A stretch of DNA of 64,000 nt from an uncultured virus (IMG/VR IMGVR_UViG_3300016662_000010) (Duplodnaviria > Heunggongvirae > Uroviricota > Caudoviricetes): IMG/VR virus record IMGVR_UViG_3300016662_000010; one strand, 5' to 3'. Each line of letters opens with the position of its first letter. Position 1 is the stretch's first letter. The notes below the pieces were generated by a model. That model saw only the letters and a program-made list of their open reading frames with translations, ran no database searches and was not told where the DNA came from. Made by a program: the position numbers and the translations under genes. This document shows, in pieces, positions 53,776 to 59,390 of the stretch.

Positions 53776-54285
53776 ATGGCCCTGCAAGTCATTTTGACCG
53801 AAGACGAAAGCCTTTCTGCCATAGAGGAGGCCCATCGTCGCCAAAAGACGAATGAAGCAAAAGGGCTATGGGGAAGGAATGGTGGGGCTAGAACTGGCGG
53901 CAAGGCCATTGAAATGCACGTTATGGGCGCCATGGGCGAAATGGCGGTGGCAAAGCACTTGGGCCTTAAAGGCTTTCTTTATCAAGAGGCCGAAGCCAAG
54001 CGTGGTTCTGTTGACTTGCCGCCAGACATTGACGTTAAAACTCGCAAAGGCCATGATCGTGACTTAATCGTGCAACTTTCTGACAGGCGAGATAAGCGTT
54101 ATATTCTGGTTACTTGGATGAATCCCGCGCAGTTGTTCATTCATGGATGGATTAGTGGCGAAAAAGCTATGCAGCCACAATACATTCTTGATCCAGCGCG
54201 AGGGCGCAAAGCCTACTTTGTGCCACAATCTGTCCTTATGCCAATGACACATTTTGACAATGCTCAAGTGCTCACAGTTTGCTGA
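53776..54285 (+). CDS. Hypothetical protein, PD-(D/E)XK-like
   Basis: GAMGEMAVAK...D...IDVKT...YILV. Confidence 0.55.
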   Translation: MALQVILTEDESLSAIEEAHRRQKTNEAKGLWGRNGGARTGGKAIEMHVMGAMGEMAVAKHLGLKGFLYQEAEAKRGSVDLPPDIDVKTRKGHDRDLIVQLSDRRDKRYILVTWMNPAQLFIHGWISGEKAMQPQYILDPARGRKAYFVPQSVLMPMTHFDNAQVLTVC

Positions 54286-56086
54286 ATACGCCTTAGGCCT
54301 TACTTTATGGGATAAGCAGAAAGAAATTGTTGATGAATACTTCAATGGCACCAAAACGCATGGTGTTTGGGCGCTTGGCCGCCGTTGTGTCACTGGAGAC
54401 ACGCTTATTACTACAAGTCAAGGAAACATAAAAATTAAAGAGTTAGCAGATCGCGGTGAGACGCTAACGCTAGAAGACGGAAGCAAATGGCAAACGTGTT
54501 CTGCACAAGTGGCCCAACTGGATGGCAGTTATGCTTCCGCAGAGCTTGTGCACGTTGGGGGAATAGAGCCAACCCGAAAAATTACACTAGCCAATGGCCT
54601 CTTTATTGCCGGCACTCTGGAACATCCCATCATGGTCATGGGAAGCAATGGAGCAGAATGGAAGGAACTACAACATATCAAGACTGGCGATTTAGTTTTT
54701 ACTGTTTCCATGAAAAGGAGCAATGGGCGAGAACTGGTGTCGGTAATTGGCAATGACGAGAATGGGCTGCATCAAGTATTTGATCTACACGTTCCTAGTA
54801 CAAATGCTTTTATTGGCAATGGCATCTGTAATCACAATAGCGGTAAAACTCTGCTTGCCGCAGTAGCGGCCCTCTATGTCTGCTTTGTCCTAGAAGAACG
54901 GTATAGGCGCAAAGTAAGAAAGAAAGAGAAGTGGTACATTGTCACTATTGCCAATGATCAATCCCAAGCAAAGTTGGCCCTAAATAACATCCGTCAACTG
55001 CTCATTGACAGTCAGTTTGCCAAAGAAATCACCAGGGAAACTGCCACTGAAATTGAAATCAGCAACGGCTGTGTATTCCAGGCAATTCCAGCCTCGGCCC
55101 GTGCTTCACGAGGTAAGGCCGTGGTCATGATCATCATGGATGAACTTGCGTTCAGCATTGAAGGCGATGCCAACCGTGGCGCAAAGGCCATCTACACCGC
55201 TCTGTCCCCCTCCATTGCCCAGTTTGGTGACGATGGGCGAATCCTAGAGCTTTCATCGCCATGGCTCACGGACGGCCTGTTCTATGAACACTACTGCGAA
55301 GCTCAAAGTGGTGAATACAAGTTCATGCAAGCCATCAACATTCCAACATGGGAAATCAATCCCAACCTGCCGTGGGGCTGTAGTTTCTTAGAGGCAGAGC
55401 TTAAGCGCGATCCCGAGAAGTTCTGGGTGGAATATGGCGCCCAATTCTCCAAGAATCTATCAGCCTTGCTAGCGCCAGAAGTGGTGGAGGCAGCCGTAGA
55501 CAAAAAGCGTGGCATCCTGTTGCCACAACGCGATTTCCAGAGCATGTACTACCTGGCCCTAGACCCCGCCAAAGGTGGTGTTGGCCGCGATAATTATACG
55601 GCAGCCATTGTCCACTACGAAGGTGAAACGCTAGTCGTGGACAAGTTCCATTCGTTTGATGCTGATTTTGAGATCAATGGTAAAAAGGAAGTCAATATCA
55701 AAGGAGTGGAGCAATGGATTGTGGAACACCATAAAGCCTATGGTTTCAAGGAAATTGTGCTTGACCAGTTCAATAGTGCTTCCACCATCCAAACGCTTGC
55801 CGAAAGTTTCCCAATTAGCGAACTGACGTGGAGTGTTTCCACTAAGATGAAGGCGTTTAGCAAGATGCGACAGTTGTTCAATGCTGGCCTGATCAGTCTC
55901 TATCCACATGAAATTGCAATCAAACAGATCAAAAACCTTAGCGTGGTGTATCGACAATCAGGACAATGGACAGTGACTGGTGGTAAAGAAGCAAATGTTG
56001 ACGACTATCCCTTTGCATTGGCTGCTGCCATCATGGTGGCATCAGAAGGTGATGATATTGACTGGATCAATTCTTTAGTTCGCTAA
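54254..56086 (+). CDS. terL: Terminase large subunit, intein-containing
   Basis: Spliced Walker A GRR|SGKT, Walker B IIMDE, LSSP, nuclease LALDPA, DQF, DD.P.ALA. Confidence 0.92.
   Translation: MTMLKCSQFAEYALGLTLWDKQKEIVDEYFNGTKTHGVWALGRRCVTGDTLITTSQGNIKIKELADRGETLTLEDGSKWQTCSAQVAQLDGSYASAELVHVGGIEPTRKITLANGLFIAGTLEHPIMVMGSNGAEWKELQHIKTGDLVFTVSMKRSNGRELVSVIGNDENGLHQVFDLHVPSTNAFIGNGICNHNSGKTLLAAVAALYVCFVLEERYRRKVRKKEKWYIVTIANDQSQAKLALNNIRQLLIDSQFAKEITRETATEIEISNGCVFQAIPASARASRGKAVVMIIMDELAFSIEGDANRGAKAIYTALSPSIAQFGDDGRILELSSPWLTDGLFYEHYCEAQSGEYKFMQAINIPTWEINPNLPWGCSFLEAELKRDPEKFWVEYGAQFSKNLSALLAPEVVEAAVDKKRGILLPQRDFQSMYYLALDPAKGGVGRDNYTAAIVHYEGETLVVDKFHSFDADFEINGKKEVNIKGVEQWIVEHHKAYGFKEIVLDQFNSASTIQTLAESFPISELTWSVSTKMKAFSKMRQLFNAGLISLYPHEIAIKQIKNLSVVYRQSGQWTVTGGKEANVDDYPFALAAAIMVASEGDDIDWINSLVR
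54386..54838 (+). mobile_element. Mini-intein (151 aa, no homing endonuclease)
   Basis: Starts CVTGDT, block B TLEHP, ends VFDLHV...NAFIGNGICNHN followed by Ser. Confidence 0.93.
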
Positions 56087-56560: not shown

Positions 56561-56697
56561 TGGTTCGGCTTTGTTATTCCATGAAAGGCAAGCGATATGA
56601 GGCTTGCCTGTCTATCAAGGAAGCAATCAAACTAAATCAACGCCTATTAGCTGCTGGAGCGGCAGTGTATTGGACCGAACGACTTTCCCTTCCATAG
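56560..56697 (+). CDS. Small hypothetical protein
   Basis: MVRLCYSMKGKRYEACL...VYWTER; TGATG coupling to the upstream gene. Confidence 0.5.
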   Translation: MVRLCYSMKGKRYEACLSIKEAIKLNQRLLAAGAAVYWTERLSLP

Positions 56698-56761
56698 CCC
56701 AACCGGAAGAGGCAGCGCCCTTAAAAGGCGTATAGTGTCAGTTCGACTCTGACTGGAGGGA
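56688..56761 (+). tRNA. trnL: tRNA-Leu(UAA), short variable loop, no encoded CCA
   Basis: Acceptor CCTTCCA/TGGAGGG, anticodon arm GCGCC-CTTAAAA-GGCGT, T arm GTCAG-TTCGACT-CTGAC, discriminator A. Confidence 0.88.
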
Positions 56762-57274
56762 TTCCATTTCAGCTTTTACCACTTCCCAGGCGATTGGGGC
56801 GAAATTGGTGTGCTCCACGCACACGGAATAGTAGAGCGGATCAATGGTACCGTCAAGTAGCGTGATACGTCCTGTATGCAAGTGGCCATGAATGTTGCCA
56901 CGATACCGTTCTACTGAACCACGATGGCAAGGAATATGAGAAAACAGAAAGCGATCGTTGTTGACGAAAGCTCCCCGAATGTCATAGAAGAACTCTGTGT
57001 AGTCAGAGAGCCTAAAGATGTCGTGGTTGCCACGAATCAATGCTTTCTTTCCATTGAGACGGCCAAGGATTTTGAGAGACTGCCTAGGAATGGCCACGTC
57101 GCCTAGATGGTACACAGTATCTTGCGGCTTAACCACTGCATTCCACCGCTCTACCATGGCTTCATCCATGGCTTCTACGGTATCCCACGGGCGAGTCTTG
57201 TTGCCATTGGCGTCAACAAAGGAGCAAGACTTAACGTGGCCAAAATGCGTATCAGAGATCAGAAAGAGGCTCAT
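56738..57274 (-). CDS. Calcineurin-like metallophosphoesterase
   Basis: SDTHFGH, HLGD, GNHD, SHIP, HGHLH. Confidence 0.93.
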   Translation of the reverse strand: MSLFLISDTHFGHVKSCSFVDANGNKTRPWDTVEAMDEAMVERWNAVVKPQDTVYHLGDVAIPRQSLKILGRLNGKKALIRGNHDIFRLSDYTEFFYDIRGAFVNNDRFLFSHIPCHRGSVERYRGNIHGHLHTGRITLLDGTIDPLYYSVCVEHTNFAPIAWEVVKAEMESLQSESN

Positions 57275-57692: not shown

Positions 57693-57749
57693 GATTGCTC
57701 TATTGCGGCGTGCCCTGCGAGAATACCATGGACAGAACGGGAATGCAAG

Positions 57750-57780
57750 AAAAAGGCCCCGGGATTGCCGTCCCGAGACC
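57750..57780 (-). terminator. Strong terminator closing the ncRNA region
   Basis: GGTCTCGGGA-CGGCAA-TCCCGGGGCC plus TTTTT. Confidence 0.8.
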
Positions 57781-57833
57781 TGAGGTGATTCACAACCGAA
57801 CCGGGGAGAGAGGCCCCAGCCCATCAGATCATA

Positions 57834-57908
57834 ACACCCAGGCGGGATTTGAACCCACATCGTCCTGCAGCAGCAGAACCGTCTTGTCCAGTTAGCTCGG
57901 ACTAGGTG
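57834..57908 (-). ncRNA. tRNA-like element without canonical anticodon loop
   Basis: Acceptor CACCTAG/CTGGGTG, T arm GTGGG-TTCAAAT-CCCGC, D-loop-like AACTGG, central hairpin GTTCTGC-TGCT-GCAGGAC. Confidence 0.65.
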
Positions 57909-58146
57909 AGCAGCCTCCCGATTTGAGCATCGTTGAGAGGCTTGGGAGGATGGGTCCGTTGCAGTGGGGCTCGAAAGTCCATGCCAGTGGAACCATACTG
58001 TTCAGAAGGCGTCCCTTCTGGCCCGCAATCACGGGACTTATCCCAGACCAGGAAAGAACGAACTAGAGTCGAACTTTAGAACTGGCTGGACTCCATCGAC
58101 AGAGCAATGGAGGGAAAGCAATTCCAGTTGCCGGTCATTCCACCCC

Positions 58147-58210
58147 TGGGATGGAGTGGGAGTCGAACCCACAAAGGCCAGCCCCTAGGGGCCGCTGGGA
58201 GTTCCACCCA
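58147..58210 (-). ncRNA. Second degenerate tRNA-like element
   Basis: T arm GTGGG-TTCGACT-CCCAC, possible TGGGTGGA/TCCATCCCA stem, GC hairpin CGGCCCC/GGGGCTG. Confidence 0.45.
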
Positions 58211-58307
58211 GATTGCTCATTGACTATAGCGTCACTTGAGCCCTATGGCAATGGTGATGGGCTGACCGTGCCGCCCTCTAGGCTATCTGCCTAGCGCGTA
58301 CAGAGGA

Positions 58308-59390
58308 TCAGCCTCCATCATTGGCTATTGTAGCTATACGACGCTGGCTAATTTCGTAGTACGCCTGTTCCTTCTCTATTCCAATAAAGCCAAACCCTTC
58401 CTCAGCAGCCGCAATGCCAGTCGTTCCACTGCCCATAAATGGGTCAAGGACGGTCCCGCCTGGGGGAGTCACAAGACGGCACAAGTAGCGCATTAGACTG
58501 AGAGGTTTGACAGTGGGATGATTGTTGCCTTCTCCACGTTCGCGCTTACTGGTTTTGGAGCAGTAGAAAAAGCGGGCAGCAGAGCCTAGTTGAACCACTA
58601 CCTCGTCGCTGCCATTGTGGAGCAAGTTGGCGGGCCAGCGGCCAATGGATTCACCAGGGCGCTGCTCGTTGTAACTAGCGGGCCTGGCCGGCGTCTCCCA
58701 ACCAGTCGCGCCAGTCGATGCGTTTGGGGCTGCGTGAGTGCGTCGCTCAACAGATGGTGATGGCTCGCCTTCCACCCTGCATCCATCCACGTTGATCCCT
58801 CCAGTCCCCCATTGCAGCACATTGGCAGCAACGGTTCCCTTAAATGGTTTGCGGGCCATGGTGATAATTTCAGTGGCTGGTTTCAATGCCGTGCCCCATC
58901 CCTCCCATCGCTTTGCCTCATCAGTGACAGGTGCTGTGATCATCGCGCTATCTGGCATTCCCACTGCACTCATGTTCAGCGAATTACCTCCAGCCTTGTT
59001 GCCAGCGGGATTGGGATGAAGGCCAATCACAGTTCGCTCTACGCCAGCGGCCTTGTCCAAGGCCTTGCTGATGTCCAATGACTTGGGAAATCCACTGCCA
59101 TAATGCCACATCACAAGATCCCTAATCTCAAATCCTGCATCTTCAATTTTGATTGCCATTCGATGCTGAGTACGAGTGCCAGCAAAAGCCAATAAGTGTC
59201 CACCAGGCTTCAAGACTCGCAAGCATTCAGCCCATATCTCCTCACTTGGCACGTCATAATCCCATTTCTTGCCCATGAAAGAAAGGCCATACGGAGGGTC
59301 TGTGACAATGGCGTCAACAGAAGCATCAGGCATGGCCTTGAGTTCGTCTAGGCAGTCACCATGAATCAAATGGGACGATGGAGAAGGCAT
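58308..59390 (-). CDS. Orphan N6-adenine/N4-cytosine DNA methyltransferase (beta class)
   Basis: IVTDPPY, HPTVKP, VLDPFMGSGTT. Confidence 0.95.
   Translation of the reverse strand: MPSPSSHLIHGDCLDELKAMPDASVDAIVTDPPYGLSFMGKKWDYDVPSEEIWAECLRVLKPGGHLLAFAGTRTQHRMAIKIEDAGFEIRDLVMWHYGSGFPKSLDISKALDKAAGVERTVIGLHPNPAGNKAGGNSLNMSAVGMPDSAMITAPVTDEAKRWEGWGTALKPATEIITMARKPFKGTVAANVLQWGTGGINVDGCRVEGEPSPSVERRTHAAPNASTGATGWETPARPASYNEQRPGESIGRWPANLLHNGSDEVVVQLGSAARFFYCSKTSKRERGEGNNHPTVKPLSLMRYLCRLVTPPGGTVLDPFMGSGTTGIAAAEEGFGFIGIEKEQAYYEISQRRIATIANDGG

Follow-up and report, generated by a model that had tools for sequence, protein, structure and literature searches.

A shuffled array of structured RNA modules, including orphan RNAs of AbiF antitoxin type, in the genome of an uncultured tailed phage

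The stretch of 64,000 nucleotides analysed here (hereafter the window; uncultured virus, IMG/VR IMGVR_UViG_3300016662_000010) carries on its minus strand, between positions 58319 and 57835, eight small RNA modules that form a cassette array and follow one another in the order m0-m1-m2a-m2b-m3-m4b-abiF-TLS. Comparisons with related phages indicate that these modules are structurally conserved and shuffled, and that the phage, as judged from sequence, carries RNAs of antitoxin type without the toxin. In particular, abiF and m0 are by sequence and predicted fold copies of leader RNAs that are placed directly ahead of AbiF-family HEPN RNase genes in bacteria, including Cyanobiaceae. We consider it probable that the array serves chiefly in counter-defence: promoters of the phage itself would drive its transcription, abiF and m0 would act as spare antitoxins for subtypes of AbiF, the tRNA-like units would serve release or protection, and the others are probably further decoys.

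With respect to the genomic setting, the window belongs to a tailed phage genome with capsid, portal, lysozyme, ThyX and ribonucleotide reductase genes (Pfam), and the sequencing runs covering at least half of it are freshwater metagenomes from two studies; modules common to cultured Synechococcus phages point to a cyanobacterial host. The array is flanked on one side by a DNA methyltransferase gene, within whose 3′ end lie the putative promoter P1 and the beginning of m0, and on the other side by two small genes, the second of which, the metallophosphoesterase gene, is the usual neighbour of the array in relatives (Table 1). The nearest virus record compared (G001) is without the array region. 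The initial annotation had described about 500 nt without a credible gene, and indeed the longest open reading frame fully inside the region has 47 aa, while for a 202-aa frame that extends in from the left the most probable start is near 57695, because relatives differ upstream of this position. ARAGORN made no tRNA calls in the array region, and the Rfam search yielded a single family in the whole window, abiF, the rest of the array region having E-values above 1. Elsewhere in the window, ARAGORN reports a single tRNA-Leu(TAA) gene (56688-56761, plus strand) on the strand opposite to the phosphoesterase gene and overlapping its end, and a 610-aa frame (54254-56086, plus strand), presumably terminase-like from its position alone, contains a domain resembling an intein (Pfam Intein_splicing, E 2.3e-8, slightly short of the cut-off).

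Table 1. Positions of the array modules, associated signals and neighbouring genes in the window.
Feature	Position	Strand	Description	Basis
DNA methyltransferase gene (N6_N4_Mtase)	58308..59390	-		Pfam PF01555, E 8.6e-35; ORF list
P1	58327..58334	-	putative promoter; its -10 box GCTACAAT precedes m0 by about 8 nt
m0	58256..58319	-	bulged stem, CUC/C internal loop, variable apical hairpin
P2	58223..58251	-	putative sigma-70-like promoter TTGCCA-17-TATAGT ahead of m1	10/12 consensus
m1	58130..58212	-	five-helix tRNA-like module, no anticodon
m2a	58091..58112	-	8-bp hairpin, conserved CUCUGU loop
m2b	58041..58090	-	carrier stem (GCAGC...GUUUGCG type) with variable insert
m3	58003..58039	-	AAGUCC, then two stacked hairpins	z -3.24
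m4b	57954..57998	-	conserved 45-nt module; possible pseudoknot	read by eye
abiF	57913..57949	-	abiF RNA motif (AbiF antitoxin), orphan	Rfam RF03085, 57.3 bits
TLS	57835..57908	-	tRNA-like structure; no encoded CCA
Possible further -10 box and short RNA	57782..57837	-	putative -10 box at 57837-57828 and short C-rich hairpin RNA up to the terminator	conserved in L083, L180
Intrinsic terminator	57748..57781	-	11 pairs and T run
Metallophosphoesterase gene	56738..57274	-		Pfam Metallophos_2; synteny

Initially the region had been matched to no known RNA family; its CCTCCC/GGGAGG hairpin is, however, the closing stem of abiF (RF03085), which scores 57.3 bits against a gathering cut-off of 37 and covers positions 1-37 of the 37 of the model. 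RCd22 is reported to be a type III antitoxin that binds and neutralises AbiF in trans (10.1101/2025.04.15.648962), and a bulge of AbiFr to block the RNase (PMC12737573; PMC13064643); the module in the window is the full-length motif of this AbiF type III toxin-antitoxin RNA. In contrast to AbiF systems, in which an Abi_2/AbiF gene lies directly downstream of the RNA, the window array is without a toxin gene in cis, its abiF is embedded among other modules, and the fold of m0 lies outside the Rfam model. No AbiF gene was found by tblastn with three AbiF proteins in the 64 kb of the window, which may not be the whole genome (best E 0.45).

A scan for the 18-letter abiF core revealed at least 119 viral loci, and of the 99 of their records put through a whole-record Pfam search five contained Abi_2 and 94 did not, many viral records being fragments, so that some of these apparent orphans may have a toxin elsewhere. 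Abi_2 was likewise present in two of the 21 records with the core that are at least 90% complete, and tblastn found AbiF in one of 19 further loci outside the Pfam search. Amongst cultured phages, orphan abiF occurs in 54 mycobacteriophage and several Synechococcus phage records, and those that were opened had no Abi gene annotated near it. The closing stem of the motif is kept, since its flanks retain their pairing despite letter changes: at least five pairs are present in 45 of 82 distinct flanks, compared to a mean of 10.4 and a maximum of 16 upon shuffling. When folded alone, the window abiF prefers a competing hairpin in which the loop is hidden.

Several further forms of the motif were encountered. 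Long abiF variants have hairpins inserted in the loop (L148-L150, L153, L159, L182, L185 and others), and most of them are missed by Rfam at its cut-off. In three loci of a different phage group (L001-L003) a tRNA gene is followed by abiF and then by a conserved structured RNA of about 150 nt, which includes an AAGUCC hairpin like that of m3 and for which there was no Rfam match and BLAST gave chance-level matches alone. In mycobacteriophage LittleE (L258, 1501-2050) an orphan abiF is followed by hairpin-rich, T-arm-bearing sequence; the motif is shared by many mycobacteriophage records, in some of which a small annotated ORF overlaps it.

Potential hosts possess the AbiF target, as 15 of the 301 Cyanobiaceae genomes searched have an Abi_2 match exceeding the cut-off. 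The leaders of the Cyanobiaceae Abi_2 loci are of three types, alpha, beta and gamma. In the alpha leader (seven loci) the abiF core bears an apical stem of greater length, and its flanks AACACCCYC...CAAAC...GGGGGTCACT also frame the abiF slot of the phages; this leader reaches 30.7-33.1 bits with the Rfam abiF model, which is under the cut-off, and no canonical short abiF above this cut-off was found in 151 Cyanobiaceae genomes. The gamma leader, found ahead of Abi_2 in four Cyanobiaceae loci (L343, L344, L355, L356), has an outer stem, a CUC core and an inserted hairpin, and was absent from the phage loci examined.

The second module of antitoxin type, m0, belongs to no Rfam family. It forms the true start of the array, which thus begins at 58319-58256, about 55 nt earlier than the feature as first delimited. 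In an alignment of 28 sequences 92.9% of the cells are paired and eight of 14 pairs have changed on both sides. A model (R1) built from these 28 phage copies only was run on 151 Cyanobiaceae genomes and found matches of 52-53 bits in three of them, in each case on the same strand and about 135 nt ahead of an Abi_2 match, the host copy having a promoter on one side and an intact Abi_2 HEPN gene on the other. Matches above 30 bits occurred in three of six Abi_2-positive genomes and in none of the 145 others (p = 3.6e-5, Fisher's exact test), but these three strong loci, with proteins 89-99% alike, represent one lineage; one of them lies among chromosomal genes and one on a contig with a phage lysozyme. 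A fourth match (G110, 25 bits) was set aside, as it lies inside coding sequence, and in a phylum-wide sample the only match in 151 genomes was to a genome already found. The protein encoded behind the host m0 matches the solved AbiF structure 8VZ6 (E 3.3e-22) and keeps the RxxxxH motif as RNRCAH.

For independent lineages, three of 30 plasmid homologues of this protein were sampled (36-46% identity; Pseudomonas, Shewanella and Vibrio, all gammaproteobacterial). In all three the best R1 match is weak (12-13 bits, E 0.015-0.027 in 7 kb), and the m0-like stem lies at locus positions 282-340, where it directly follows a TTGAC...-10 promoter and precedes the gene. BLAST of the host m0 against plasmids gave chance-level matches alone, as did BLAST of the window modules. 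In the Pseudomonas plasmid locus (L443) the beta-type Abi gene is preceded by a gene of the DUF3800 family, which is associated with numerous RNA motifs that have no assigned role.

Taken by sequence and fold, m0 resembles a leader RNA that is absent from Rfam and belongs to a second (beta) subfamily of AbiF. With the AbiF antitoxin RNA it shares the internal loop and, in bacteria, the place in front of Abi_2: abiF, m0, the host leaders and the mD module of related arrays all have two helices separated by a CUC bulge that faces a single U or C. This position and the shared loop suggest that the host RNA of m0 type acts as an antitoxin. Of the 34 arm positions, two differ from the host RNA in the closest phage m0 and 11 in the m0 of the window. 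Amongst cultured phages, S-CBS2 has an m0 (56.6 bits) behind mD, and in S-SRM01 and S-SZBM1 m0 stands beside abiF and tRNAs.

As regards the remaining modules, m2 has six of 12 pairs changed on both sides in 21 sequences (five of eight in m2a) and the first helix of m3 three of five, and 42 distinct m3 copies, chosen for pairing, show mixed pair types in both helices. The m4b module, known from nine distinct copies, has no stable nested fold (z +0.72). Host counterparts were sought in overlapping samples that cover part of the Cyanobiaceae. The m2 pattern matched 16 times, in 15 of 301 genomes, and the hairpin was missing from every match, compared to about nine matches for a reversed control, and the m2 model found none in 28; m4b was found in none of 201 genomes and m4a in none of 221, and the two matches to mD in 221 were both without the inner stem. 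The m3 model, whose second helix is out of register and whose E-values are inflated, reached at most 24 bits in 151 genomes, none of its matches resembling a toxin leader, and in a metagenome scan the 34 m3 loci read as phage arrays with the exception of L418 (1.1 kb, no toxin ORF).

Some properties of these modules would also fit a purely structural role, in which they are scaffolds and processing or stability elements of a phage RNA operon, such as punctuation, nuclease blocks or apical-insert carriers, the captured antitoxin folds now being stable stems or binding a phage protein via the CUC loop. Thus m0, mD, m2b and the long form of abiF are carrier stems with exchangeable inserts, the motif CUCUG is displayed in m0, mD and m2a, and orphan abiF often directly adjoins tRNA genes. 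However, the unpaired bases that would face the toxin are invariant whereas the stems vary, and two antitoxin types are kept, each matching a different subfamily of host toxins, which makes this explanation an unlikely one.

The two anticodon-less tRNA-like domains recognised at the outset correspond to m1 and TLS, both of which covary and are without a conserved anticodon. The layout of m1 comprises a GG-loop hairpin, a second hairpin and a 3-bp closing helix that encloses both a T arm and an acceptor-like hairpin closed by a loop; in an alignment of six sequences all 27 pairs are formed (100%) and eight have changed on both sides (0/500 shuffles), while the minimum free energy fold of the single sequence differs from that of the alignment (z -0.6). 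The GACCGG...CTGGTC multibranch proposed for this part is not supported, as the GGC of GACCGGC closes m1, and modules of their own are formed by the CTCCATTG hairpin and the CCAG/CTGG stem. The TLS has a 7-bp acceptor stem, a 5-bp T arm, a 2-bp D stem with a conserved D loop, and a free anticodon arm. In 13 sequences its acceptor stem and T arm are 100% paired and covary as in a tRNA, with all seven acceptor pairs and 12 of 20 pairs overall changed on both sides (0/500 shuffles). The full tRNA-like element initially placed at the 3′ side is real, and its anticodon arm is the least conserved part, varying widely in length with loops of 3-4 nt or branched inserts; in L089 and L144 a long branched insert stands in its place. 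As a 5-bp/7-nt anticodon arm with a conserved anticodon is missing, and neither ARAGORN nor Rfam calls a tRNA, TLS does not qualify as a tRNA gene. A further tRNA-like type, with a short D arm, a hairpin loop AGAUA, ACAUA or AAAUA and varying ARAGORN identities, lies 3′ of abiF in 41 of 74 arrays (L058, L036, L030 and others); this hairpin is also the apical insert of the window m0.

The m1 and TLS modules may be decoys or processing signals. Because TLS keeps the acceptor stem, the T arm and the D-loop sequence and leaves the anticodon arm free, a role as elbow mimic or processing signal would suit it better than one as anticodon bait. This bears on the possibility that the array mainly decoys tRNA-directed defences, such as anticodon nucleases and tRNA-end toxins, or sponges tRNA enzymes, with abiF as a passenger. 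The two covarying tRNA-like modules of the window, the third type in more than half of the arrays and the real tRNA genes that interleave with modules in relatives are all in its favour; a poorly conserved anticodon arm, however, makes a poor bait for anticodon nucleases, and in the 74 arrays abiF-type modules predominate (short form in 32, long form in 30) over TLS (12) and m1 (6). We regard such a role as quite unlikely. The first suggestion of a tRNA-decoy array was right in spirit as to decoys, whereas the decoys that can be identified mimic AbiF RNA antitoxins and not tRNAs.

With respect to the array as a whole, pairing is kept by compensatory changes in each module tested, that is m0, m1, TLS, m2 and m3. 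All five were better than 500 of 500 shuffles, by percentage paired and covariation score, and than slid controls, with kinship left in; the alignment members were picked by conserved patterns, the conservation of which is thus partly circular. The inverted repeats listed at first are present, and the region is as dense in hairpins as described, since its 515 nt fold at -209.9 kcal/mol compared to -190.6 +/- 7.0 for shuffled sequences (z = -2.76; 0/100 shuffles as good). The strong terminator was likewise confirmed, at 57781-57754; amongst near relatives its loop is found in both orientations. The GCTCA/TGAGC hairpin is present in its letters but straddles the -10 box of the promoter-like TTGCCA-17-TATAGT (58251-58223).

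Candidate promoters were compared with their background frequency. A TAYNNT box lies 2-20 nt upstream of m0 in 28 of 44 distinct phage contexts, compared to a background of 5%. Sites of the P2 type taken alone occur at chance level, while a -10 box precedes five of six m1 copies, again with a background of 5%. The segment from the -10 box at the TLS end to the terminator (57837-57748, minus strand), which has a C-rich single-stranded stretch, might be a separate small RNA.

Relatives, gathered by pattern and protein scans, share short blocks in changing combinations. A regular-expression census of all non-host loci, in which arrays of three or more modules were counted by sequence and not by genome, some of them cut by locus ends, revealed 74 distinct arrays in 56 orders, with modules gained, lost and reordered and with a preferred module order. 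In the relative L083, m0 is joined directly to abiF, and the same 301-nt skip (57949 to 58251, with four letters fitting either side) occurs in DNA contigs of two runs, X1 and X3; this natural variant without m1 to m4b implies that these modules are dispensable at least at times. In a contig of a further run (X4) another m0 variant replaces m1, with a loose end at 58115, and in L180 the array is split by two inserted genes. One array (L127:387-570, minus strand) has a permuted two-piece tmRNA at its end.

The initial reading as one undescribed ornate RNA has accordingly given way to a mosaic of independent modules. A single large RNA with one tertiary fold, similar to GOLLD or ROOL, would account for the dense hairpins, the overall z-score and the preferred order, but not for 56 orders in 74 arrays, for the internal deletion in two runs and L083, for the two genes inserted in L180 or for the putative internal promoters, and has no Rfam match to such families; it is largely refuted and very improbable. 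Equally improbable are functionless relics of AbiF-locus leaders and decayed tRNA genes, to which whole AbiF loci in some viral records (5/99) and the departure of the window m2b and m0 from the consensus would be suited, as opposed to the compensatory changes in every module tested, the modules' own -10 boxes, and the occurrence of the same modules in unrelated myo- and siphoviruses.

Amongst known systems, the closest in working is the pseudo-ToxI of phage PhiTE, described in PMC3475682 as one antitoxin (ToxI) in tandem repeats that were expanded in escape mutants. Like it, the window array is a phage non-coding RNA that appears to copy a type III antitoxin without the toxin; unlike it, the array comprises single copies of at least two antitoxin types, concerns a HEPN toxin family, is of mix-and-match design and occurs in natural phages. 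No ToxI match was found in the Rfam search of the window, tandem ToxI-like repeats are absent, and the modules are single and dissimilar, so that the array is predicted to work like pseudo-ToxI and yet is not a member. In cyanophage S-CREM1 an abiF sRNA has been annotated in a wcaG/manA/tRNA cluster, as a Rfam hit of unconfirmed role; it is an orphan between tRNA genes of a Synechococcus phage, as here without a toxin, and its publications, to the extent that their text is available, describe no decoy function, array or other modules (PMC9964418; PMC12197685).

The succession of a T arm and a loop-closed acceptor-like hairpin in m1 resembles YrlA Y RNA, but its D-like hairpin lies 5′ of the T arm and not 3′ of the acceptor hairpin as in YrlA (PMC4201824), and there was no Rfam match, so that this assignment was rejected; a Ro60 (TROVE) gene was found in none of five related phage records, nor in the four of at least 90% completeness. 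The array is non-coding, structured and of a type found near tRNAs in phages, and in this resembles manA, GOLLD and ROOL, all three being large tRNA-associated phage RNAs; membership was rejected because there is no Rfam match, and the variety of module orders contrasts with one conserved multi-domain fold. RNA anti-CRISPRs (solitary repeat units) are phage-encoded versions of the RNA component of a defence ribonucleoprotein of the host, come without its protein and target Cas proteins, whereas the targets proposed here would be AbiF-family RNases.

A report of phage-borne AbiF antitoxin decoys or of such arrays was not found in the literature searched, although the Cell 2025 AbiF paper and the supplement of PMC5737381 may mention orphans. 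The main text of PMC5737381, which defined the abiF motif, is silent on it, the available part of a counter-defence editorial of November 2026 (PMC13728456) leaves AbiF unmentioned, and that of PMC12283969 has nothing on orphan abiF.

According to the explanation that we favour, in which abiF and m0 are spare antitoxins, P1 and P2 would transcribe the array during infection, and the orphan antitoxins would replace the host antitoxin as it runs down, so that several AbiF subtypes stay off. The tRNA-like modules m1 and TLS might be cut by host tRNA-processing enzymes or protect ends, whereby stable units would be released, and m2, m3 and m4b would probably be decoys for other RNA-binding defence proteins. 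A bolder reading, which we put forward tentatively and hold to be a real possibility though not a probable one, is that each module of 30-80 nt is the captured RNA of a different host defence ribonucleoprotein, released by tRNA-like units and swapped to follow the defences of the host. As part of it, m0 would define an uncatalogued class of AbiF antitoxins, and m2a, m2b, m3, m4a, m4b and mD would amount to a parts list of undescribed RNA-regulated defence systems.

Few cases of RNA-based counter-defence by phages are known, and the AbiF family has been described as ancestral to Cas13. If the explanation by spare antitoxins is true, orphan anti-AbiF antitoxin RNAs are common in natural phages, including cyanophages, mycobacteriophages and others, antitoxin decoys come as exchangeable multi-decoy arrays, and a Rfam hit annotated in phages without a function would acquire a role. 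The modules are present in the cultured phages S-CBS2, S-SRM01, S-SZBM1 and S-CREM1 and in mycobacteriophage LittleE, and the host toxin genes are sequenced. Finally, since in this case a phage module has led in the reverse direction to an uncatalogued host fold of antitoxin type, the other modules may likewise point to new defence systems.
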